DNA from: a virus
Taxonomy: Duplodnaviria > Heunggongvirae > Uroviricota > Caudoviricetes
Virus record (IMG/VR): IMGVR_UViG_2651869691_000005
Reading direction: 5' to 3' (one strand)
DNA: 26,439 bases
Numbering within the stretch: the stretch's first letter is position 1; the number at the start of each line of letters is the position of its first letter. Shown one piece after another: positions 2,322-14,615 of the stretch. The position numbers were made by a program, and so were the translations under genes. The notes beneath the pieces are model-generated. The model was not told where the DNA came from, made no database searches, and worked only from the letters and a program-made list of their open reading frames with translations.

Positions 2322-2524
2322 AACCTCACTCCCAGCGGACGACGGCGACGTCGGGTTGTCCCCAGTACCGACTCCGCATCATTGATCGCCCGGTTAAGCT
2401 CATCCAGAGAAGCCGCCGTATATTCAATTCTGCGACCATCTTTCTGGACAGACACCACCCGTTTACCGGTTAATAAATCAAGGCGCGCCTGACGCAGCGC
2501 CTGCAGTTCAGCGACTGTAACCAT
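2318..2524 (-). CDS. W: Head-tail joining protein W
   Basis: 68-aa ORF containing TGKRVVSVQKDGRRIEYTAASL, resembling lambda gpW (68 aa). Overlaps the terminase stop and portal start as in lambda. Confidence 0.85.
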   Translation of the reverse strand: MVTVAELQALRQARLDLLTGKRVVSVQKDGRRIEYTAASLDELNRAINDAESVLGTTRRRRRPLGVRL

Positions 2525-4436
2525 TCACTCCTCCGGACAGCTTCGCTGCCAGTTCTTTCAGGGTTGGCCGGGTCGTCTCTTCTTCCCGGGATTTTGCCAG
2601 TACAGCCAGATCAAGCTGCCAGCGTTGCACGGACACACGTAATGCCGCGTAGGCATACACCAGGCAGTCCAGCGCTTCGTTACGCCGCTTTTTGTTATCC
2701 CACAGCAGACGCATCTTTCCTTTTTCCCACTTCTCCACAAGCTCTTCCGCGACCAGTTGCTGCGCCTCTGTCTGCGAAAAAATCTCCGGATCATCAGGAA
2801 AACGGATGGCATACGACGTGGCTTCATCCGCAGGAGTGGGATCGGCTTTCATACGGGCATAGAGAATTTCTTTTGCGGTGTCCGTCCCCACTTCACACAG
2901 ATACACGCCCCGCTGATTGCGGGTTTTCGGCATGGTGATCACCGGCTTGCCATAGACAGATGCGCCTTTTACCGGCAGCACCCGGAAAACACCGTGTTTT
3001 TTTGACCTCTGATAGACAATTTCACCATCGATCCCCCCGGTGTCCCAGCAGACACGGGAAATGGTCATTTCGGTTCCGTCTGCATGGCAGTATTTTTTGT
3101 TGATCGCCGCATCCACACGTAACAGCGTCTCTTCCTCATCGGGACGGCCCATAATGATGATTTTATCCACCAGAAAAGCTTCCTCTCCCGGTGCCCATCC
3201 CCAGACATACATCTCAAAACGGTTTCGCTGCGAGTCAATGCCCGCCGTCAGATAAACCACCCGGGCAGGTACCGCCGCCGTGTAATGCACGACCTTATCC
3301 ATCAGTACCTGGTGATCGAGTTTTTCGCCCACGGCTTCTTCCCAGGTCTCGCCCAGCGTGGTGTTCACAAAGGTTTTCAGGCCGTTGGGATCTTTCAGTG
3401 CATCCAGCCAGTCATAGACTATCTGTACCCAGGTGGTAAACGGACTGTACGCCGTCCAGATATGGAACGTGATGGAGCGCGGCGGCGGAATTTCATCACC
3501 CCGGGCGCTGAAAAACGTCAGACCGTCACGGGTCCACATGCCCGTGTTTTCACAGATCCACCGCCCGTTGCTCTGGTCCAGTTCAGACTGATGGATCACG
3601 CAGCCATGATGTTCACAGAGGTAGAAAACACTTTCGGGGCTGTCCTTCTCCCATTTAAGCCCAAAAGGCGTGGACTCATCGCCAAATTTCAGATACTGCG
3701 CCTCCCCACAGTGCGGGCAGGGCACATAAAAACGCATAAAATGCGCCGACTCGTTAGCGGCTTTTTCGATCTGGCAGGTGCCTTTGATTTTAGGCGTCGA
3801 GCCGCGAATGGATTTTGGCCACACCGACCCCTCAATACGCTTATCCCCCAGCAGGGTTGGCGAGCCCTCTTTTTCGACATCCGGCTCGAACGAGGAAAGT
3901 TCGTCATAGCAGACCACGTCCACGGATTTTTCACGGTAGTTTTTGGCGGCAGCGCCGCCCAGGCACCAGAAACCGACGCCCGATGAAAAGCGTTTCAGCG
4001 TGAGGGTATTATCACGATGTTTACGCCCAAACCACGGTGCAAGATCGAGTAAAACCGGCACATCCCTGATCGTGGGTTCCACATGAGATTTCATAAAATC
4101 TTCAGCAGCAGAATCCGTGGGCTGGAAAAGAAGGCTGTTGCGTGATTTATGCTCAATAAAATAAGCCTCCACTCCCAGCAACATCTTTGTATAACCAACA
4201 CGGGCAGATTTAATCAGATTAACAGTGCGGATCCGGTCATTCCCCATGCTGTTCATGATGGCAACCTGAAACGGCAGTGTTTCCCACCGCCCCGGGGTGT
4301 AAGATGACTCTTTCGGAAGGTAATAATGTCGATCTGCCCACTGAACTGTCGTCAGAGGGACAGGAATTTTTAGCGCAAGGAGGCCGGTTGCTATCGCTCC
4401 TGCAGAATTAGCCGCCCTCAGTTCGTCTGAAATCAT
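2508..4436 (-). CDS. A: Terminase large subunit (lambda A-like)
   Basis: Long ORF with [45 protein letters not shown] and [13 protein letters not shown] blocks matching lambda gpA as recalled. Start placed at ATG 4434-4436, which has the best SD (AGGTGG, 5 nt upstream) and a lambda-like Nu1/A overlap; in-frame alternatives at 4454 and 4478. Confidence 0.88.
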
Positions 4437-4956
4437 CAATCCACCTGCGCACATTCTCACCGGCTTCAGAAGCCACATCGGATGCTTTCGCGATTTCAGT
4501 TTTCACAGCATCAAGATGTGCGGGTGATATATCAGGGTATTTACGCTGCAGTGTCTGAGGGACACGGACAAGGCTCCCTGATATATTCTGTGCCACTCGC
4601 TGAAAGATGTAGGTAAATAACTCCGTCTCGAGGACAAGGCCTTCCTCACGAGCATTTTTCAGCTCCTGTGCATCGGCCTGTGCCTTCGTCAGTCGGTAAC
4701 GTTCGTAATCAATGGTGCCGGGCTGAAGGTCTGATTCGCTGGCAGCCCTCAAATCCTCGATCTCTTTACGGAGTTTTTCGTTTTCAATATCAGCTTCCCT
4801 CTGCGCATACCACTGAATGGCAGCAGTTGTATCAAAAACTGATTCAGTCCCTTTCCCTCCACCAGAAACTAGTGGTAACCCCTGACTCTGCCAGGCGGTG
4901 ATGGTCCTGACATCAACGCCAAAAATATCGGCCAGTTTTTTCTTATTGACGTTCAT
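4408..4956 (-). CDS. Nu1: Terminase small subunit (lambda Nu1-like)
   Basis: 182-aa [39 protein letters not shown]...[49 protein letters not shown], closely matching lambda Nu1 as recalled. Immediately downstream of cos. Confidence 0.9.
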
Positions 4957-4978
4957 ACACTCCCCCGGGAACCAGAAA

Positions 4979-5085
4979 GGATCTGAAAATGGCGTTTTCT
5001 AACAAAAACAGCCTTTGTCAGATCCTTTTATATTTTTAAAATTCTATTGATAATCAAACAGTTAAAAAAAGAAGAACGGATCTGA
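4979..5085. repeat. cosB-like repeats: three copies of GGATCTGA (4979-4986 and 5078-5085 direct, 5018-5025 inverted) between Nu1 start and cosN
   Basis: Exact 8-mer seen three times with A/T-rich flanks. The position corresponds to the lambda cosB R-elements bound by the small terminase subunit; that role is inferred. Confidence 0.5.
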
Positions 5086-5124
5086 TTTTTCCCTAAAAAT
5101 TTTCATAAATAGCGAAAACCCGCG

Positions 5125-5136
5125 AGGTCGCCGCCC
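5125..5136 (-). other. cosN cohesive-end site (12-nt GGGCGGCGACCT read on the minus strand)
   Basis: Reverse complement of 5091-5170 reads ...TTTCCGGCGATCCGGCAGGCTAC|GGGGCGGCGACCTCGCGGGTTTTCGCTATTTATGAAAATTTT, almost base for base the lambda right-end/left-end cos junction as recalled. A lambda right-end-like stretch continues at 5280-5335 (cosQ region). Confidence 0.85.
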
Positions 5137-5647
5137 CGTAGCCTGCCGGATCGCCGGAAAGGACCCAATAAAATGATAATAATTATCATTTATATAAATA
5201 CCATCACACATCCCACGTACACCATAAAACCACGACAAATAATCAATTTTGTCCAAGTCATGCATTAATTGATCTGTGTCAACTTAACGTAAAGACATCT
5301 TAAGACAATACAAATCAGCAGCACTGAACACGGAAAAACACAATGTCATCAAAAAATAAAGCTTCCCAAACCAGATGATTAATCAAATCCATATTGCCCT
5401 TGAACGTAAGGGATCGGGTAATTTTTCGGCATGGGTTATTGAAGCCTGCAGGAGAAGGCTGGCAACAGATGCAAAGCACCTGCGCCCGGCCAGCATGAAA
5501 AATAACGAGAAATGAACGTTCGGTTACAGGAACCGGTAGCTACTGTCTTCTAACAATATTTCATCTTCATATCCGGCGAAACAAGACTTTACCCTGCAGG
5601 GATGTACTGAATAGCAACAGAGTGATAATTAACTTCTGATAAAATAA

Positions 5648-5974
5648 TCAGGGTGCTGAAGGACTAAAGATAAATGTTTTCTTCACGCCTTTACGCGGCT
5701 TGTCCTTCTCAAATCGCCATTTTGCCATCGCCTTTACAACCTGCTCATCAAACAGATGGTGCGGCTCTGAACGGATAAACTCAATTCGGGTGACAGTACC
5801 ATCAGCACCAATATCAAACTTCACATCAACCCGTCCCTTTATATAATTTGCCGCGGCATAGGCCGGATATTGTGGTAATGCCTTAACCAACTGTCGAGGC
5901 ATATCTGTTTTATGTTGCGTACAGCCCATAACCAAAGAAGACAACAAAATAATTAACGGAAGATTTCTTTTCAT
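5648..5974 (-). CDS. Small lipoprotein with TonB C-terminal-like domain (moron between lysis genes and cos)
   Basis: From ATG 5972-5974: MKRNLPLIILLSSLVMGC... (signal peptide with lipobox-like Cys), then YPAYAAANYIKGRVDVKFDIGADGTVTRIEFIRSEPHHLFDEQVVKAMAKWRF, which fits the TonB_C pattern. Not lambda Bor. Confidence 0.55.
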   Translation of the reverse strand: MKRNLPLIILLSSLVMGCTQHKTDMPRQLVKALPQYPAYAAANYIKGRVDVKFDIGADGTVTRIEFIRSEPHHLFDEQVVKAMAKWRFEKDKPRKGVKKTFIFSPSAP

Positions 5975-6649
5975 TTTTATTCCCGGCATAGATAAGAATA
6001 AGTCTTATTCTAACAATGCAGCCCTGTCGGTCATCAATCCTCTGCTTAATGGCAATGACAATTATCCGACTTAAATCACAAATCAGACACATGACATAAC
6101 AGAGCTTGCGAGGTAACACATCGTCCGGTTTCTTCCACCATCGCACCGGACCAGCGACCATGAGGGGACAACGCCGCGCTCCGTTAACACGGTAAACCCC
6201 GGTGTGTATCGTTTTTGATTATCCCCGCACACTCGCGCAGAGGAGTCTCCCTCTCGGGCTGTGGTCTCTGTTGATGCGGGAATACGGCGACGATACAGTG
6301 CATAGTTATGTCAGGCTAAAATGCCTTTATCAAATCTGGGTAACGCAATCTGCCATTGTTGGCTCCGGTTGTGGTGATGATGTCAAGCAAGCCCATCTTG
6401 ACTATCTCAACTAGTCGATTCATGACATATGTCACATTTATACCAACCAGATCATTGCGTTGAGTTTACAACTCAATAATTCTTGGTTGGACGTCAAGTT
6501 TTGACGGTATTCGGGTGGCAGTTGATAGCAATCTTGGAACCGTCCACCTAATAGCTGCTTGTGTGGCGTTTAAATTGTGGAGTGCTCGCAACAGAACTTT
6601 TCTTTCTTGTTTGCGAGCGATGTTTAGCAACTTTTAAGAGAGTTAAGTC

Positions 6650-6880
6650 ATGGAGTTTTTGAAAGAGCATCATTTGCCTTCAATAATTTTTGGAATTTTT
6701 TCCGCCATTTTTTGGATTATTTCATGTTTTGCATCTTCCAAAGAACACCCACCAAAAACGGAACAAGGCAGTTTCTCATCACTGGGTTGTTTTAAAGCCA
6801 TTGAAATACAAAGTAAATGGAATAAACGGGCTGCTTTTTGCGCAGCGTTAGCTGTTCTTGCTCAAGTATTTAGCTTTTAG
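6650..6880 (+). CDS. Hypothetical small membrane protein (76 aa)
   Basis: ORF with a hydrophobic segment (LPSIIFGIFSAIFWIISCFA), opposite in orientation to the late genes, followed by an intrinsic terminator. Upstream region is rich in palindromes. Confidence 0.4.
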   Translation: MEFLKEHHLPSIIFGIFSAIFWIISCFASSKEHPPKTEQGSFSSLGCFKAIEIQSKWNKRAAFCAALAVLAQVFSF

Positions 6881-6897
6881 TTTCAAAAGTGTAAATC

Positions 6898-6931
6898 AGA
6901 ACCACTCGTATAGCGGGTGGTTCTCTGTTTT
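6898..6931 (+). terminator. Rho-independent terminator downstream of the 6650-6880 gene
   Basis: AGAACCAC...GTGGTTCT stem followed by a T-rich tract (CTGTTTTATT). Confidence 0.55.
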
Positions 6932-6996
6932 ATTCGTGTTGCGACTAAAACTAACTAAAATCACGCATATGAAAGATAATGGGAAAATTATCGCTA

Positions 6997-7434
6997 TCAT
7001 CGAAGGCATTGCGTCCTAATGTACTCCTGCAAGTAGTTAACCTGCGCGGTTATCCTGTCGATTCCACTTCGGAGACGGTAATAATTGAGTTCAGCATCTG
7101 CTGTAAGTCCTGGGGTTTCTCCATTGCCCATGCCGCTGGCTCCGGTCGTTGACTTTGCACAGGTGGCGGCGACTTGCAGGCGCTTACGCCCAGCAGAAAC
7201 ATCAGCACGGAGACTTTCGATAGTCGCATTAGCATCAGCAAGCTCCTTTGTGTATCTGGCGTCAAGTTCTGCTACATCACGTTGCCGCTTCTGCATATCA
7301 GCGATGATGGATGTGGCTTTATCGCGCTGCTCTTTGTAGGCGATGGCGTTATCACGGTAATGATTAACAGCCCATGAAAGGCAGACGATGAGGCAGATGA
7401 CCAGAACGTAGATAATCGCGGTTACTCTGCTCAT
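6997..7434 (-). CDS. Rz: Spanin, inner-membrane subunit (Rz)
   Basis: [39 protein letters not shown]... closely matches the lambda Rz N-terminus as recalled. Start ATG 7432-7434 overlaps the endolysin stop. Confidence 0.85.
7050..7235 (-). CDS. Rz1: Spanin, outer-membrane lipoprotein subunit (Rz1), embedded in Rz in the +1 frame
   Basis: Embedded ORF; from ATG 7233-7235 it reads [33 protein letters not shown]..., a lipobox followed by a proline-rich segment, the classic Rz1 arrangement. Confidence 0.75.
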
Positions 7435-7928
7435 TGTTGCCCCCACAAACAGACTTCACGCTCAATCTCACGGCGAGTCATCAGCCCTTTCCATTGCTTA
7501 CCGCCAGCGTATGTCCAGCGCCGTAGCTGATCACATGCGCCTTTGATATCGCCCTGGTTTATTTTGCGAAGAAGCGTCGATGTTCTGAAATTGCCAGCGC
7601 CCACGTTGTAAACGAACGAGTAAAGAGCGCCGCGCGTTGTTTCCGGTATATCGACGTTGATGTACGGGTTTATTTGTCTGGCGACCGTGGCAAGGTCTTT
7701 ATTCAGGAGGGCTTTGCATTCTGCTTCGGTATACGTTTTACCGGGCATGATGTCTTTTCCGGTGTGTCCGTGACATACAGTCCATACGCCAACGATATCT
7801 TCGTATGGTATGTAGCTGACACCTTCCAGGCCATCGTCACCACTCGGACCAGTGATGAGCACAGACGCTATGGCAACAGCCCCACCACCAATAGCAGCAG
7901 CAACAGCCTTGCGTAATGACGGCGACAT
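7431..7928 (-). CDS. R: SAR endolysin (phage 21 R21-like lysozyme)
   Basis: 165-aa [62 protein letters not shown]..., near-identical to the P21 SAR endolysin as recalled. N-terminal Gly/Ala-rich signal-anchor-release domain. Confidence 0.9.
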
Positions 7929-8134
7929 TATTCACCTCTCGCAGCCTTACGCTTATCTTCTTTAATCTTGAAATAAAGGTTTGTCAGATACGTCAGCAGG
8001 CCAAACAGCAGACTCCCCAGCACACCTATTGCCACCCACTGGGACGGAGAGACTTTGTCCAGCAGCTGCAGTAACCAGTATCCCGTCCCCACCGCTGACG
8101 TGGTGTATGACACACCTGTTGTGATTTTTTCCAT
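7928..8134 (-). CDS. S: Pinholin (phage 21 S21-like)
   Basis: 68-aa [71 protein letters not shown], matching S21 pinholin as recalled. Its stop overlaps the R start (TAATG). Confidence 0.85.
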
Positions 8135-8427: not shown

Positions 8428-10278
8428 TTATGCTGCCGGTGCATTTATCTCCAGCACCAGACTTTCTATCTCAACGCCATACGCTGCATTTTTGGTAATA
8501 TCCGTCAGCGTCAGCGCATTCAGCCCCAGTGTCAGACTGTCTTTTATGACCTGGAATGCCGGGCCAGCCACTCCATTCAGTTTCGGAGTAACCGTGGCAC
8601 TGCCGGCGGTGAACACCAGTTCCAGCGTCTGCCAGTCATTACTGTAATTCCCGAACTCGCCCAACTTTGTGTTTCCTGCTTTCTTGTGATGCATCAGATT
8701 CAGTTTGCCGTCTGTGGTCTGGGTGAAGAACGACATCAGGAACGGGTTACCAGTCCCGGTCATCGCCACGACGTCAGGTAACGCTACATCGGTATACAGA
8801 TAAATTCCCAGGCCGAACTGGTTGTTGGTCAGTGCGCCTGACAGTCGAAACTTACAGCTCAGTCTGCCACCCCGTGTCAGCAGGGAGACTGCGTCATCCA
8901 CCGGATGCATCAGGGACCAGGTTTTATTGCTCTGCTTGGCGATCTTAAATACACCACCCGACAACTGAATTCCGCCGTCCTTAATGGTCCAGCCCTGCGC
9001 AGCAGCCTCTCCGGCTGTCGGCAACAGGGAGATTGTGCGTACGGATGCATCTTCAGACGGCCCCGATGGCGTGTTGCCGCCGGGCGAGGGTTTGATTTCC
9101 GGTGCCTTACCACTGATGAAAGCTGAGGTGCGCCCGGCTGCGTTCAGAATAGCGGTTGCCATACGATCCGGAATAATGCTCCTGCGCGCCCATGAACTGA
9201 AATGTGTCGGGCGGTTTGATGATACCTGGTTTCCATTCGTTCTCGATGCCGCACCGTAATATCCTGATGCCGGAATATCCGGATCTTCTGCCGGTGCGTT
9301 AGTGGCGGTATTGACGCCGTTACCGTCTGTCATGAAGGGCACAAAATAAACGCCCTCACTCTCCCTGTTTTTATACCCGCCGTACACGGTGTCGTACTGG
9401 GTAGCGTATGTATTTTTCCAGTAATACGTCGTGTCACCACAAATCCACGGCACATTTACAGCACTGCCACCATGACACTGCGCGTTAAACACAGTGAGGT
9501 CAGCACGAAACTGCTTCAGCATGGCTGTAAACAGCGCAGGTTGCTGTGCGTAGGTGGCGGCGCTCATGTCAAACTCTCCCTGCATCCAGCACACCGCCAG
9601 CAACACATTTTTCGGGTTCTTCTGTAATGCAGCTTTAGTGCGCGCAATCAGGTCCTGATATAACGGTTTACCCACCCCCCAGCGCGCCGAATCCTGGCTG
9701 GCCCCCGCGTCCGCACTGAATGTCCCCTCCGCGCCCTGGGTGAATGCCGAACCACCACGACAGCATGGTACCAGCAGGATCCCCGCGTTATTCGGGATAT
9801 ACGGGAGCAGTTTTTTGGCAATATGTAAGCCCTGGCCGACACAGCCGTACTGCCCTTTGCTCAGGTCTGCCTTCGGATGATTCAGCGTACTCATATCCTG
9901 CACATCATGCAGACAGTGGTCAGCCGGGATGATGTCGTTATACGTACAACTCTCTCCACCCGGAGTTACCGTGCTGCGGCGCGCCAGCTGTTTAATGCGC
10001 GGATCCGGAGCATCGTAAGAATCCGGTAACGGAAGCCCTTCACCGTAGGCCATGCCGTTGGACTGTCCGGCAAGCACAACCACGTAGAACCAGTCCGGCT
10101 CAGTTGCACCACTGACGACCACATCACCTTCTGCTGCAATCGCCTGCATCAGGGTATAAGGGGTTATGGCCACCGGACTACCAAACGGCTGCCAGCCCTC
10201 TTTCAGTTTATGTGTCAGCTTTTCCGCAAGATCTGACGGCGACGCCGCCCTGACAACATCATAGTGTTTAAATGCCAT
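8428..10278 (-). CDS. nanS-p: Prophage sialate O-acetylesterase (NanS-p-like; N-terminal DUF1737-like segment plus SGNH/SASA esterase domain)
   Basis: Large ORF; N-terminus MAFKHYDVVRAASPSDLAEKL... and a GQSN esterase motif (VVVLAGQSNGMAYGEG). Sits immediately upstream of S, as the nanS-p genes do in EHEC Stx prophages. Start chosen at ATG 10276-10278 for its better SD. Confidence 0.8.
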   Translation of the reverse strand: MAFKHYDVVRAASPSDLAEKLTHKLKEGWQPFGSPVAITPYTLMQAIAAEGDVVVSGATEPDWFYVVVLAGQSNGMAYGEGLPLPDSYDAPDPRIKQLARRSTVTPGGESCTYNDIIPADHCLHDVQDMSTLNHPKADLSKGQYGCVGQGLHIAKKLLPYIPNNAGILLVPCCRGGSAFTQGAEGTFSADAGASQDSARWGVGKPLYQDLIARTKAALQKNPKNVLLAVCWMQGEFDMSAATYAQQPALFTAMLKQFRADLTVFNAQCHGGSAVNVPWICGDTTYYWKNTYATQYDTVYGGYKNRESEGVYFVPFMTDGNGVNTATNAPAEDPDIPASGYYGAASRTNGNQVSSNRPTHFSSWARRSIIPDRMATAILNAAGRTSAFISGKAPEIKPSPGGNTPSGPSEDASVRTISLLPTAGEAAAQGWTIKDGGIQLSGGVFKIAKQSNKTWSLMHPVDDAVSLLTRGGRLSCKFRLSGALTNNQFGLGIYLYTDVALPDVVAMTGTGNPFLMSFFTQTTDGKLNLMHHKKAGNTKLGEFGNYSNDWQTLELVFTAGSATVTPKLNGVAGPAFQVIKDSLTLGLNALTLTDITKNAAYGVEIESLVLEINAPAA

Positions 10279-10538
10279 GGTTCTTTCCACCATCTGAAAA
10301 ATAATTCTTTAAAATACCTGACATGTAATACAGAAAAAACACAAAACCATACCTTAAATAAAAACCTCATCATCAAGCAGATATGCATGGATAAACTACA
10401 AGACGAGATATAAACCACCCTGCATTTAAATAAACAATAAACAACATCAGAAAAATAATTCTGCTCTATGGTTTACAATCAAAAATATCATTTATACTTT
10501 TCAGAACATCACCAGCAAGGCATAAACAAGGAAACTAA

Positions 10539-10874
10539 ATGAAGTGGATTGTGATTGATACAGTTATCCAGCCATCATGCGGAATATCTTTTTCAGTCAT
10601 ATGGAGTAAAATAAAATTAATAATCTGGTATCAATCGGATGCTTTCTTACCTCCTGAAAGTATATTTACACTGACTCACACAGGTATCATGCTCAATAAC
10701 AAAGTGCTACCTGTAACCATTTACAACGTAGTACCATTCAATAAAACATTCTGGAATTTAATCAAAAACAGCCAGGAATGCCCTACAAATACAGATAACG
10801 TATTGAATGAATGCTTTAATAACCGTTGCACTCTGCAAATATGTCCTTATGGGCTAAAACAACAAAATCCATAA
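10539..10874 (+). CDS. Hypothetical protein (111 aa) in AT-rich cargo segment
   Basis: ORF with a good SD (AAGGAAACTAAATG); Cys-containing C-terminus. No family recognised. Antisense to the late operon. Confidence 0.35.
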
Positions 10875-11306
10875 GGAGTTTACTCACATCTGACAAAATC
10901 AATATAAACAGCCCCTCCGGAGAGGGGCTGGAGAGTGGCGCTATGTGCCATTGCATGGTGCCGGGTGCCTCCCGGTGAATTCAGTACCAGCACCTGAATC
11001 CGCGATTATCCCATATACCTACTCGCTGATTGCCCCTCCGCACAGGGGGATTCACCATGCCAGTTTCTTTTAACAAACTCCCCGCAAACCAGACAACAGT
11101 CAACCGCCTGAATTGTGAAGTATTTAAAAATTTCTCCGGCTAACAGTCTGGCGTTTTCTTTTTCAGCAACGGGAAAGCAACAACCACCACACCCGCCACC
11201 AGTACACAGTCAGCCAGCACTGACATTATCCGGCTGCTGCAATGCCATTCACAAAAACAGTAAGCAATCACTTTTTACCGTAACAGGTGATAATCCAGAT
11301 ATGTAT

Positions 11307-11633
11307 CTACCCCAGATGAGTAATCCGAAGTTCATCCATACCACAGGTCCTGGCTATTCTGTTGTACTCCTGAACAAGAGCAAATAATTCTGAATTAGCA
11401 ACCATGAACTCATCGCAAACCCTCTGTATAGCATCACTATTCAGAATAATAACGTCTCTTCCCAAAAGACGATCAGGAGTACAGAACAAAACTGTCAAAC
11501 GGCTGAAGGCCTTTGCTCGTGCTGCATTGACTATATCAATACGCTGCCTAAGGATGAAACACCCCGACGCCTCATCAATATTCACTCTACCCACACCATA
11601 TGAATGATAAATATTTAATACTGAAAAAACCAT
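11307..11633 (-). CDS. Hypothetical protein (~108 aa from first ATG) in AT-rich cargo segment
   Basis: Minus-strand ORF directly downstream of the tRNA cluster, at the position stxA occupies in Stx phages. Hydrophobic N-terminus; weak RBS; no family recognised. Confidence 0.3.
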   Translation of the reverse strand: MVFSVLNIYHSYGVGRVNIDEASGCFILRQRIDIVNAARAKAFSRLTVLFCTPDRLLGRDVIILNSDAIQRVCDEFMVANSELFALVQEYNRIARTCGMDELRITHLG

Positions 11634-11770
11634 TAGACCGTATAACAAACACTCAATCAATACTTAACAGAACTTTTATTTTTGACAAACATATAATATT
11701 TTCAACAATATCCTGAGCCAGGTATATTCCAGTATAAGGCTCTGCCGGAAGAAATCTGGAAGAATGAATA

Positions 11771-11847
11771 TGGCGCGTTGTACTGGATTCGAACCAGTGA
11801 CCGATTGCTTAGAAGGCAATTGCTCTGTCCGGCTGAGCTAACAACGC
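11771..11847 (-). tRNA. tRNA-Arg (anticodon UCU)
   Basis: Reverse complement GCGTTGTTAGCTCAGCCGGACAGAGCAATTGCCTTCTAAGCAATCGGTCACTGGTTCGAATCCAGTACAACGCGCCA folds as a canonical cloverleaf with a TCT anticodon, TTCGAAT T-loop and encoded CCA. Confidence 0.8.
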
Positions 11848-11860
11848 ATAATGCAGATAA

Positions 11861-11937
11861 TGGATTGCCATCGGGGACCCGGGCCCCACACAGCCAGTTT
11901 CGAAAGCTGACGCTCTCTGCCGATGAGCTAATGGCGG
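11861..11937 (-). tRNA. tRNA-like element, possibly a degenerate tRNA (candidate anticodon UCG)
   Basis: Lies between two clear tRNAs with a D-arm-like GCTC...GAGC, but the acceptor stem has two terminal mismatches and the T-loop is CCCGGGT rather than TTCRANY. Confidence 0.35.
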
Positions 11938-11944
11938 TATGTGA

Positions 11945-12020
11945 TGGTGGCCCTTGCTGGATTTGAACCAGCGACCTGGCGATTATGAGTCGCTCGCTCT
12001 CACCACTGAGCTAAAGGGCC
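11945..12020 (-). tRNA. tRNA-Ile2 type (anticodon CAU, ileX/ileZ-like; elongator Met cannot be excluded from sequence alone)
   Basis: Reverse complement GGCCCTTTAGCTCAGTGGTGAGAGCGAGCGACTCATAATCGCCAGGTCGCTGGTTCAAATCCAGCAAGGGCCACCA; canonical cloverleaf, closely resembling E. coli ileX as recalled. Confidence 0.8.
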
Positions 12021-12069: not shown

Positions 12070-13119
12070 TCAAACGATTAAATCCTGAACTTCCCTGACT
12101 GTCTGTTCAAAACGTCCTGTCTCCAGCTCAACACCAATCGCACAACGCCCCAGTGCCATCGCCGCTTTTACCGTTGAACCTGAACCCATAAAAAAATCTG
12201 CAACCAGGTCTCCCGGACGACTGCTCGCGTTGATTATCTGCTGCAGCATTTCTGCCGGTTTTTCGCACGGATGTTTCCCTGGATAGTACTGCACCGGTTT
12301 ATGCGTCCAGACATCGGTGTACGGAACCTGCGCCGTCACACCGAAATACCGCCGCAAATTTTTATATTCACTCAGCAGTTCCGTATACTGCCGGTTCAGC
12401 TCACTGTATGTGCTGACCAGCTGGTGGTGTGGCTTTTCCAGTTCCCCGCGCTGATGTTTTTCTGCCGCAACACGCGCAAACAACGCCTGCAATTTGTTGT
12501 AATTACCCTCGTTCGGTAACTGCCACTGACTGGTACCAAACCAGTGCGAAGCCATGTTTTTCTTTCCGGTGGCTTCCGCTATCTGTTTTGACGTTATTCC
12601 CAGTGATTTACGCGCATCACGAAAGTAAGAAATCAGCGGGGCCATGACGTGCTGTTTTAGCTCGCGCCCCTGTGCCACATAGCCATCATCTTTCGGGCGA
12701 TACGGTCCCTGATAATGTTCTGCAAACAGAATGCGCTCTGTTGCCGGAAAATACGCCCGCAGACTTTCCTTATTGCACCCGTTCCAGCGTCCGGACGGCT
12801 TCGCCCAGATAATGTGGTTCAGCACATTAAAGCGCTCACGCATCATGATTTCGGTGTCAGATGCCAGGCGATGACCACAGAACAGGTAAAGACTTCCGGC
12901 AGGCTTCAGTACCCGCCAGAACTGCGCCAGACACTGGTCCAGCCATTTCAGGTAATCATCGTCGCCCTCCCACTGGTTATCCCAGCCCTCGGGCTTCACT
13001 TTAAAGTATGGCGGGTCTGTGACTATCAGATCGACAGAGTTTTCCGGTAAGGTCTGGATAAATTCCAGGCAATCAGCGTTGATTAACTCACAACTGGATA
13101 TTTTTACAGTATTAATCAT
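12070..13119 (-). CDS. Orphan DNA methyltransferase (beta-class amino-MTase, probably N6-adenine)
   Basis: 349-aa ORF with motif IV DPPY near the N-terminus (LIVTDPPYF) and motif I FxGxG near the C-terminus (DFFMGSGST). No restriction endonuclease ORF is adjacent. Confidence 0.85.
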   Translation of the reverse strand: MINTVKISSCELINADCLEFIQTLPENSVDLIVTDPPYFKVKPEGWDNQWEGDDDYLKWLDQCLAQFWRVLKPAGSLYLFCGHRLASDTEIMMRERFNVLNHIIWAKPSGRWNGCNKESLRAYFPATERILFAEHYQGPYRPKDDGYVAQGRELKQHVMAPLISYFRDARKSLGITSKQIAEATGKKNMASHWFGTSQWQLPNEGNYNKLQALFARVAAEKHQRGELEKPHHQLVSTYSELNRQYTELLSEYKNLRRYFGVTAQVPYTDVWTHKPVQYYPGKHPCEKPAEMLQQIINASSRPGDLVADFFMGSGSTVKAAMALGRCAIGVELETGRFEQTVREVQDLIV

Positions 13120-13698: not shown

Positions 13699-14241
13699 TC
13701 AAGACATTTTTTGAGCAAACGATTCTCGCATAGGGATGTATAGCGCATATTCAGCAACAGCCAACCAATTAGCAATTCGCTTTTCGCATGTACTAAAACA
13801 CCATTCCGGGTGCACCTCATTCAACAATTCAGCCATTTTGCGTTTACTCATCCCCCGCCCTTCGTACCTTTGCCGCAGGATATCAATCAATCCAGGATAA
13901 CGTGCAAGCGCTTTACTTATCACCCCATCAATGCGTAACGCCTCTGCATCAGTACAGTGAGACAACCAGCTCTTCTGTCTGCCAGCGATCATCTCTCGCA
14001 AGAATGCTTCCAGCTCTGGTTTATCAATCCCTGACTCCCTGATTCTACGCAGGGCTTCATTGATTGCGGTTTTTGTCAGTTTTTTGGATGCCAGCAACTG
14101 ATTGAACATATTTCCTGGTTTGCCACCACCTATATACGACCAACGCCCCCACATCCGTAATTTCCCCTGGATCCAGACGGCTTCCAGCGTTTTTAGACGT
14201 AAATGCTCGCCGCTTTTGCCTGTAATTTCCGGGTATATCAT
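13699..14241 (-). CDS. Putative late antiterminator (Q-like)
   Basis: Assigned mainly by position: directly downstream of rusA and upstream of a strong terminator and the late genes. I do not recognise the sequence with certainty. Start ambiguous (ATG 14239-14241 or GTG 14251-14253). Confidence 0.5.
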   Translation of the reverse strand: MIYPEITGKSGEHLRLKTLEAVWIQGKLRMWGRWSYIGGGKPGNMFNQLLASKKLTKTAINEALRRIRESGIDKPELEAFLREMIAGRQKSWLSHCTDAEALRIDGVISKALARYPGLIDILRQRYEGRGMSKRKMAELLNEVHPEWCFSTCEKRIANWLAVAEYALYIPMRESFAQKMS

Positions 14242-14249
14242 ATTTACGA

Positions 14250-14615
14250 TCACTCACTCTCAATTTTGTAAATCTTCACGCCCAGCCGTCCCCCAGGAAC
14301 GCGCTGACCGCGCACAATATTGATTTCATCAAACTGCTCGTCGTCTATGAGAAGTCCGGCATGCGTCAGCGCATCCAGTGGTGCTTTCAGGATATTGTCC
14401 AGGTCACGACGACGTTTATCCGGTGGCTCTGCAATAATCTTTATCGCCAGCCTTCCGGACAGGTTTAATTTCAGCCGCTGCTGGCGAACAATAAGCGCCA
14501 CATCACGGCGATAACGCTCACCGGCTTTTGATACAAAATATGTGCTGCCACGACGTCGCCAGTAAGTGTTCACCGTTGGCGGGTAAGGCAAAACAAATTC
14601 TATGCGTTCAGTCAT
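14250..14615 (-). CDS. rusA: Holliday junction resolvase RusA
   Basis: 121-aa ORF MTERIEFVLPYPPTVNTYWRRRG...PDKRRRDLDNILKAPLDAL...; RusA-like length, catalytic DLDN region and nin-region position. Confidence 0.85.
   Translation of the reverse strand: MTERIEFVLPYPPTVNTYWRRRGSTYFVSKAGERYRRDVALIVRQQRLKLNLSGRLAIKIIAEPPDKRRRDLDNILKAPLDALTHAGLLIDDEQFDEINIVRGQRVPGGRLGVKIYKIESE

Follow-up and report, generated by a model that had tools for sequence, protein, structure and literature searches.

Iron and vitamin B12 enter through the TonB-dependent transporters of the outer membrane, and so do siderophore–antibiotic conjugates, several phages and many colicins and microcins. In the complexes with FhuA and BtuB, the C-terminal domain of TonB is placed against the periplasmic rim of the barrel, and the TonB box is bound mainly through backbone beta-augmentation (PMC6699858). 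When overexpressed, the periplasmic TonB domain inhibits transport through FecA and FhuA, according to the account of Howard et al. (2001, J Bacteriol 183:5885) given in PMC9841981, and phage T5 makes a small periplasmic outer-membrane lipoprotein, Llp, that blocks FhuA from its periplasmic face (PMC9586334). Here, we describe a predicted lipoprotein of 108 amino acids (aa) with a TonB C-terminal domain, encoded at positions 5648-5974 on the minus strand of a 26,439-nucleotide (nt) stretch of DNA from a virus of the Caudoviricetes (IMG/VR record IMGVR_UViG_2651869691_000005; the whole stretch is hereafter called the window), and compare it with these systems and with other phage lipoproteins. 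Like this protein, Llp of T5 and Cor of phages phi80, N15 and HK022 are small phage-encoded lipoproteins exposed to the periplasm, from where a TonB-dependent transporter could be put out of action, and lambda Bor/Iss resembles it as a prophage outer-membrane lipoprotein encoded between Rz and cos.

Our comparison reveals that the mature part of the protein is a complete TonB C-terminal domain and that the protein is a bona fide member of the TonB_C family. It matches the Pfam TonB_C profile (PF03544) with E=2.7e-15 (57 bits against a cutoff of 24.6) and TIGR01352 with E=1.9e-15 (56.9 bits against a cutoff of 27.1). In a phmmer search against PDB sequences, the C-terminal domains of TonB from E. 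coli and Salmonella are matched at E~1e-16; the alignment is continuous, without gaps, and places residues 24-104 on TonB 151-231 (numbering of the full-length-numbered chain 9ddo). The TonB C-terminal fold pattern that an earlier note on this DNA had picked out by reading the sequence is borne out by these profile matches and by the ungapped alignment. When the register is set on the YP motif, residue n of the phage protein is residue n+127 of TonB, and residues 26-106 correspond to TonB 153-233; identity to E. coli TonB is 38-44%, about 40% over the ungapped stretch of TonB 153-233. The domain itself, as delimited by the ungapped alignment, the structural model and the Foldseek matches described below, spans aa 26-104 (E. 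coli TonB 153-231; window 5663-5899, minus strand). At the offset of 127, the residues Y163 and P164, F180, G186, F202, W213 and F230 of TonB are kept as Y36 and P37, F53, G59, F75, W86 and F103 of the phage protein, respectively, and F88 keeps the structural aromatic position of TonB Y215. By comparison, the residues corresponding to TonB Q160 and R166 have diverged to Leu33 and Tyr39, respectively; a Tyr at the R166 position is seen in most of the lipoprotein family.

The fold was predicted with AlphaFold2 from a 19-sequence family alignment. The resulting model has a mean predicted local distance difference test score (pLDDT) of 86 and exceeds 90 for about residues 25-104, and the signal peptide and the tether that follows it are low-confidence. 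The model adopts a beta-alpha-beta-beta-alpha-beta topology, with strands at residues 28-30, 47-55, 61-70 and 94-103 and helices at residues 38-42 and 76-83. The top matches in a Foldseek search against the PDB are TonB C-terminal domains only, namely 1U07, 2GSK_B from the BtuB complex and 2GRX_C from the FhuA complex, each with a root-mean-square deviation of 1.0 Å over 76-83 columns and a probability of 1.00, so that structure prediction leads to the same fold as the sequence pattern in the earlier note. The BFVD viral structure library holds no match to the model at E≤1e-3.

Towards the N-terminus, the phage protein is distinct from TonB. E. coli TonB (P02929; structures 1U07, 2GSK and 2GRX) shares with it the fold, the YP motif and the core aromatics, but has a transmembrane helix and a Pro-rich spacer ahead of the domain. 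Both are absent from the phage protein, which instead carries a cleavable lipoprotein signal (MKR…LVMG, followed by the Cys) and an 8-residue tether. Consistent with this difference, the NCBIfam TonB equivalogs score 50-74 bits against cutoffs of 265-448, and only profile positions of about 150-240 are aligned. By its anchor, its spacer and its equivalog scores alike, the protein is not a TonB energy transducer; because the N-terminal membrane helix and the Pro-rich spacer are absent, coupling to ExbB–ExbD is impossible.

The gene is supported by the list of open reading frames (ORFs), by the Prokaryotic Genome Annotation Pipeline (PGAP) and by Pfam, with its stop codon at 5648-5650, and the PGAP product name is 'TonB family protein' (WP_000828067.1). 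The ATG at 5974 is the start chosen also by PGAP and by the curated annotation of phage 21 (CPT_21_73). A Shine–Dalgarno-like GGGAA (5980-5984, minus strand) lies five bases (5975-5979) before this ATG, and the motif (G/A)GGAAT(A/G)AAAATG at the start is kept in both E. coli alleles in the locus alignment. A longer protein of 113 aa, starting at the in-frame ATG 5989 and gaining five residues, was rejected: this start lacks a Shine–Dalgarno sequence, and its ATG is deleted by a 13-bp gap in the alleles of phage 21 and of avian pathogenic E. coli (APEC).

The lipoprotein signal peptide (aa 1-17) and the predicted lipidated Cys18 (codon 5921-5923) are encoded at 5921-5974 on the minus strand. 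The N-terminus, MKRNLPLIILLSSLVMG followed by C18-T-Q-H, combines a basic n-region, a hydrophobic core and the lipobox L-V-M-G-C18, with Thr and not Asp at +2. The size and the lipobox uphold the description in the earlier note of a lipoprotein of about 108 aa. The lipobox Cys is invariant in the homologue alignment, down to 42% identity; in distant relatives the lipoboxes read LMGC, ISAC, LLGC, LSAC, LVGC and LAAC, and the +2 residue is Ser, Thr, Ala or Val. Under the Asp+2 retention rule, lipoproteins with no Asp at +2 are sorted by the Lol system to the outer membrane. Because its +2 residue is Thr, the phage protein is predicted to be Lol-sorted to the outer membrane, where it would reside in the inner leaflet. 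Its mature part, Cys18 to Pro108, consists of the 8-residue tether (C-T-Q-H-K-T-D-M) followed by the TonB C-terminal domain.

This architecture suggests an unpowered TonB decoy. Tethered in the inner leaflet of the outer membrane, the lipoprotein would hold its domain where TonB-dependent transporters open to the periplasm; having the TonB-box-pairing surface and lacking ExbB–ExbD coupling, it would be an unenergised TonB mimic. Such a mimic would occupy the TonB boxes of FhuA, FepA, Cir and BtuB in competition with host TonB, and might also bind the TonB boxes of incoming colicins. The outcome would be a reduction or block of TonB-dependent uptake, including that of phages, colicins, microcins and nutrients, and the gain could be the exclusion of TonB-dependent phages, protection from colicins and microcins, or a shut-off of import late in infection. 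We rank this decoy first among the readings considered, with a probability of about 0.4 that draws on architecture and precedent; the outer-membrane localisation, the binding of TonB boxes, the inhibition of uptake and the biological benefit are inferred. Interference with TonB-dependent receptors had been offered as a hypothesis in the earlier note, and the hypothesis is mechanistically reasonable because the whole TonB C-terminal domain is present and the ExbBD-coupling anchor and spacer are absent.

In the model, the diverged but folded domain, its free edge strand and the 8-residue tether appear geometrically suited to exposed TonB boxes, and binding is plausible despite the sequence divergence because TonB-box pairing is mainly backbone beta-augmentation. 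The engineered dominant-negative periplasmic TonB fragments of Howard et al. (2001), as they are presented in PMC9841981, likewise comprise the periplasmic TonB C-terminal region without energy coupling. Set against those fragments as presented there, the phage protein is natural, phage-borne, diverged and, by prediction, lipid-anchored.

The likely time of expression is one of several points that weigh against the decoy. By its position, the gene would belong to the Q-dependent late transcript. A weak sigma-70-like site found in a promoter scan (ATGACC-16-TAGAAT, with TG before the -10; 6007-6034, minus strand) is a putative promoter of its own, and its -10 region is kept in both alleles as TGTTAGAAT or TGTCAGAAT. 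The region holds 7 promoter-like sites against 6.4 in shuffles, a number not above chance, and a scan of the region found no terminator after the TonB_C gene. In view of the late strand, the missing terminator and the chance-level promoter match, the gene may be expressed no earlier than just before lysis, at which point exclusion would be of little use. Two further candidates for control elements were rejected. A conserved small upstream ORF (CPT_21_72 in phage 21) keeps neither its frame nor its length in the window allele, and the GATAAT-containing stretch upstream of the gene is, by eye, a poor Fur-box match. In some loci of other phages, a good Fur-like palindrome is found just upstream of the terminase small-subunit gene, beside a cos-like sequence and not close to the TonB_C gene.

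The remaining points against the decoy concern its target, its cost and its family. The gene shows no linkage to any tail or receptor-binding module, a setting more in keeping with a generic effect than with masking of the phage's own receptor. A constitutive blockade of TonB would starve the lysogen of iron and vitamin B12. Leu and Tyr occupy the positions of TonB Q160 and R166, and because the Tyr recurs across most of the lipoprotein family, the protein could bind a partner other than the one TonB binds. Finally, the family may have a non-inhibitory housekeeping role, because the homologues at 38-52% identity are chromosomal and lie outside prophages.

With regard to the cost of a blockade, Sit is an inner-membrane Fe/Mn importer that is independent of TonB. 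In phage 21, sitABCD (OL657228, 21967-25416), which the record annotates as encoding an iron-magnesium ABC transporter, is present besides bor and the TonB_C lipoprotein. It is conceivable that this iron route might offset a TonB decoy in phage 21.

The chromosomal family introduces the first of the alternatives to the decoy. Relatives at 35-52% identity are proteins of about 110-130 aa from Klebsiella, Raoultella, Serratia, Erwinia, Rahnella and Sodalis, in which a signal or lipobox is followed by TonB_C; they share the motifs YPxYA and SEPxHLFD…KWRFE and are annotated 'TonB family protein'. These small TonB_C lipoproteins have the same architecture as the phage protein but are encoded outside prophages: in the genomes sampled, the homologues of Raoultella, Klebsiella, Serratia and Erwinia (38-52% identity) are chromosomal with no phage genes nearby. 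As judged from ORF translations, the Raoultella and Klebsiella homologues adjoin lacZ/lacI-like genes, and those of Serratia sit among min-, dsbB-, nhaB- and fadR-like genes. Some Serratia relatives have a signal-peptidase-I site in place of the lipobox.

The phage protein might thus be a conversion or housekeeping periplasmic lipoprotein that does not compete for TonB boxes, serving either the role of the chromosomal family or virulence and serum resistance like Bor/Iss. Its closest relatives outside E. coli are these chromosomal lipoproteins, to which it is nearer than to TonB; the Tyr at the R166 position recurs among them, and the gene adjoins iss in APEC and bor in phage 21. On the other hand, the relatives have no assigned function either, the gene lies on the late strand, unlike bor, and the promoter-like match is weak. 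Moreover, the fold and the free edge strand are those of the TonB-box-binding domain. On balance, we consider this alternative unlikely, albeit one with substantial points in its favour.

The distribution and divergence of the gene bear on whether it is functional at all. It is matched in 1616 of 5426 complete E. coli genomes (about 30%), where two alleles occur: the window-type allele in ~414 genomes at ≥95% identity, and the phage 21-type allele in ~1200 at roughly 72% nucleotide identity. The identical window protein is found on 569 contigs, and 'TonB family protein' is the annotation in every E. coli genome record among the matches listed. Carrier phages are phage 21, ev017, Perceval, several PhiR phages, JLK-2012, Lys8385Vzw and Shiga toxin (Stx) 1a phages, and carrier strains include enteropathogenic (EPEC), Shiga toxin-producing (STEC), avian pathogenic and extraintestinal pathogenic (ExPEC) E. 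coli. Between the two E. coli alleles, synonymous divergence (dS) is about 1.5 and the ratio of nonsynonymous to synonymous divergence (dN/dS) is 0.13; the protein is under purifying selection.

These values speak directly to the idea that a host tonB gene was captured and persists here as an inert remnant, which older names in the databases ('Partial tonB-like membrane protein encoded within prophage CP-933N', 'TonB fragment') would suggest. We reject a decayed tonB fragment on the strength of the dN/dS and because, of the 1616 matching genomes, 1612 cover the gene over 80% or more of its length. The identity to E. coli TonB of only about 40%, the acquired lipoprotein signal peptide and the confidently folded model argue in the same direction, and we strongly disfavour the remnant as very improbable.

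The differences between the two alleles are clustered. Of the eight residues 31-38 (window 5861-5884), which correspond to TonB 158-165 beside the TonB-box site, five differ; a second cluster, at residues 91-100 (window 5675-5704), takes in the turn before the last strand and the first part of that strand. Both segments belong to the parts of TonB that border the TonB box. By comparison, residues 39-47, 51-64 and 79-90 are identical between the alleles. As read from the sequences, this clustering could reflect diverging partner specificity or merely looser constraint. A wider form of the decoy, in which an energy-transducer mimic capping TonB boxes gives prophages broad protection against TonB-dependent phages, colicins and microcins and the alleles differ in transporter specificity, is a tentative proposal that we hold to be somewhat doubtful. 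The PADLOC defence models give no match to the gene.

Our comparison with Cor and Llp reveals a different genetic setting. The llp gene is an early-expressed gene, and cor is found close to the tail genes and is associated with the use of FhuA. The phage TonB_C gene, by comparison, follows the lysis genes in the late operon and occurs irrespective of the virion module. No homology to Cor or Llp was detected, and the Pfam scan gave only TonB_C and TonB_2. Given the lack of tail-module linkage, the late-operon position and the Pfam result, the analogy with Cor and Llp lipoproteins drawn in the earlier note is weaker than its idea of receptor interference.

In all contexts examined, the gene shares the late strand with the lysis cassette and comes after it. 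In the window, the S21-type holin (7928-8134), lysozyme (7431-7928), Rz (PF03245; 6997-7446) and embedded Rz1 (PF06085; 7050-7235) are encoded upstream of it on the minus strand, and about 1 kb of mixed cargo (about 5975-6996) separates Rz from the TonB_C lipoprotein gene. The exact cosN, GGGCGGCGACCT (5125-5136, minus strand), lies about 510 bp beyond the gene and is followed on the same strand by Nu1 (4408-4956) and by the long ORF after Nu1 (2508-4478 in the ORF list), which is named A by position. The gene therefore lies between the lysis genes and cos, as had been read earlier. The packaging module downstream is variable, being either lambda-type Nu1/A or an HNH endonuclease with TerS/TerL, and a Klebsiella phage copy at 41% identity is also found behind a lysis cassette. 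Because the packaging module varies and the lysis linkage is constant, the gene travels with the end of the lysis region and not with the virion or tail module.

This linkage is what recommends a second alternative, a late-stage or lysis-associated envelope accessory that binds peptidoglycan or outer-membrane proteins and either aids lysis and release or stops progeny from adsorbing to debris. The gene is always just downstream of the lysis cassette and on the same strand despite the differing packaging modules, in the diverged Klebsiella phage as well, and all three phage alleles fall in PHROG 1267, of the category 'lysis'. However, S21 holin, lysozyme, Rz and Rz1 already make up a full cassette, and the protein has a globular TonB fold with no C-terminal membrane segment. 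The intergenic slot between Rz and cos elsewhere also holds unrelated cargo (bor/iss, KilA-N, Rha and a DUF1398 gene), so the location of the gene may reflect no more than a hot spot for insertions. The PHROG-style label is also unreliable, since in RefSeq it is attached as well to an unrelated ORF over a non-coding element. An accessory role in lysis is in our view rather improbable.

The same PHROG family carries the label 'Rz-like spanin', and its match to the protein is strong (E=2.9e-42). Together with the N-terminal lipobox and the position of the gene next to Rz, it would point to an o-spanin or a unimolecular spanin. This identity is rejected on the presence of Rz and embedded Rz1 upstream and on the globular fold: the mature part is a TonB domain and not a short Pro-rich o-spanin, and no C-terminal transmembrane segment can be read from the sequence. 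We give the spanin next to no credence, and the label is probably an annotation spill-over from neighbouring Rz genes. In the RefSeq record of an Stx2 phage, 'Rz-like spanin' is the label of VT2phi_272 (1988-2233), the unrelated 81-aa ORF over the non-coding element.

The relation to bor differs from that drawn in the earlier note, which had placed the gene where lambda carries bor. Lambda Bor/Iss is unrelated to the phage TonB_C protein in fold and family, and bor is on the opposite strand. In phage 21, bor on the opposite strand is followed by the TonB_C gene on the late strand, and in the prophage of APEC IMT5155, iss is followed by the TonB_C gene. A replacement of bor was rejected on the ground of this coexistence, and a conserved 184-nt element lies between the two genes.

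As a sequence, the gene is not new, and its similarity to TonB is already in the databases under the names 'TonB family protein', 'TonB C-terminal domain protein' and 'partial tonB-like… CP-933N'. We found no functional study of the prophage TonB-like lipoprotein in the full-text literature, and the main text of candidate transcriptome papers makes no mention of TonB. What would be new is the function of a natural, lipid-anchored, phage-borne TonB mimic. If the decoy is real, it would explain part of the strain variation in sensitivity to colicins, phages and sideromycins, and would represent a new mechanistic class of superinfection exclusion or defence, which acts by mimicry of a host coupling protein and not by receptor masking. 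It would also be a natural template for inhibitors that block TonB boxes, which are already sought synthetically (PMC9841981). If the decoy is not real, the gene still represents a very common prophage cargo family with a confident fold.

The conserved non-coding element of 184 nt is located just upstream of the TonB_C gene (6121-6304, minus strand), which sits between this element on one side and a DUF3950 ORF and cos on the other. Between the contexts of the two alleles, the conservation of the element exceeds that of the TonB_C coding sequence. It is matched in 4140 of the 5426 E. coli genomes, at up to 11 places per genome and with 691 places on plasmids, and in 398 phage records; among the matches listed, it is unannotated in nearly all records. 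The element has sharp boundaries, and the sequences flanking it vary from phage to phage. In some of these phages, it is found just upstream of a cos-like sequence and a Nu1-like small terminase gene, or immediately ahead of the terminase genes. No ORF is kept across it in the copies compared, and a search of window positions 4900-7100 against Rfam 15 gave no match at E≤1.

Comparative folding supports that the element is a covarying RNA of eight helices on the late-gene strand. In an RNAalifold analysis of 22 non-redundant copies, 43 pairs are arranged in eight helices, and 97.9% of cells hold standard pairs, compared with 33-60% when partners are slid. Changes on both sides occur in six pairs against 1.8 in shuffles, and none of 500 shuffles reaches six. 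By eye, the variable central hairpin keeps its stem through CCGCG/CGCGG, CUGUG/CGCAG and UCUCAU/AUGGGA. G·U cells number 85 on the late-gene strand against 4 on the other, and paired cells make up 97.9% against 89.2%; this G·U excess and the higher pairing suggest an RNA on the late strand.

The window is a lambdoid prophage, in which every late gene is on the minus strand and positions 4900-7500 are 99.9% identical to a prophage of EPEC E2348/69. Upstream of the lysis genes, the minus strand encodes a Q-like antiterminator (13699-14253), a DNA methylase (12070-13119), tRNA-Met and tRNA-Arg (11771-12020) and a SASA/DUF1737 esterase (8428-10293). Transfer RNAs between Q/methylase and the esterase are the layout in which Stx phages carry stx. 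In the list of ORFs of at least 90 aa, none of the size of the Stx A subunit occurs in 10294-12020, and the late region is therefore an stx-less relative of Stx-phage late regions.

The cargo between Rz and the TonB_C gene includes an ORF of 76 aa on the plus strand, opposite to the late genes (6650-6880), with two hydrophobic segments read by eye. Its sole match is phrog_14357, to which no function is assigned, with no match in Pfam or PADLOC; it looks like a moron because it fills the slot of bor/iss in the phage 21 and APEC prophages. A bidirectional terminator-like hairpin with a 12-bp stem (6898-6924) lies beyond this ORF. On the other side of the TonB_C gene, before cos, the DUF3950 ORF (46 aa, phrog_949) is encoded on the plus strand at 5375-5515, and in most related prophages the same slot holds a YlcI/YnfO-family or DUF3950 gene, with or without the TonB_C gene.

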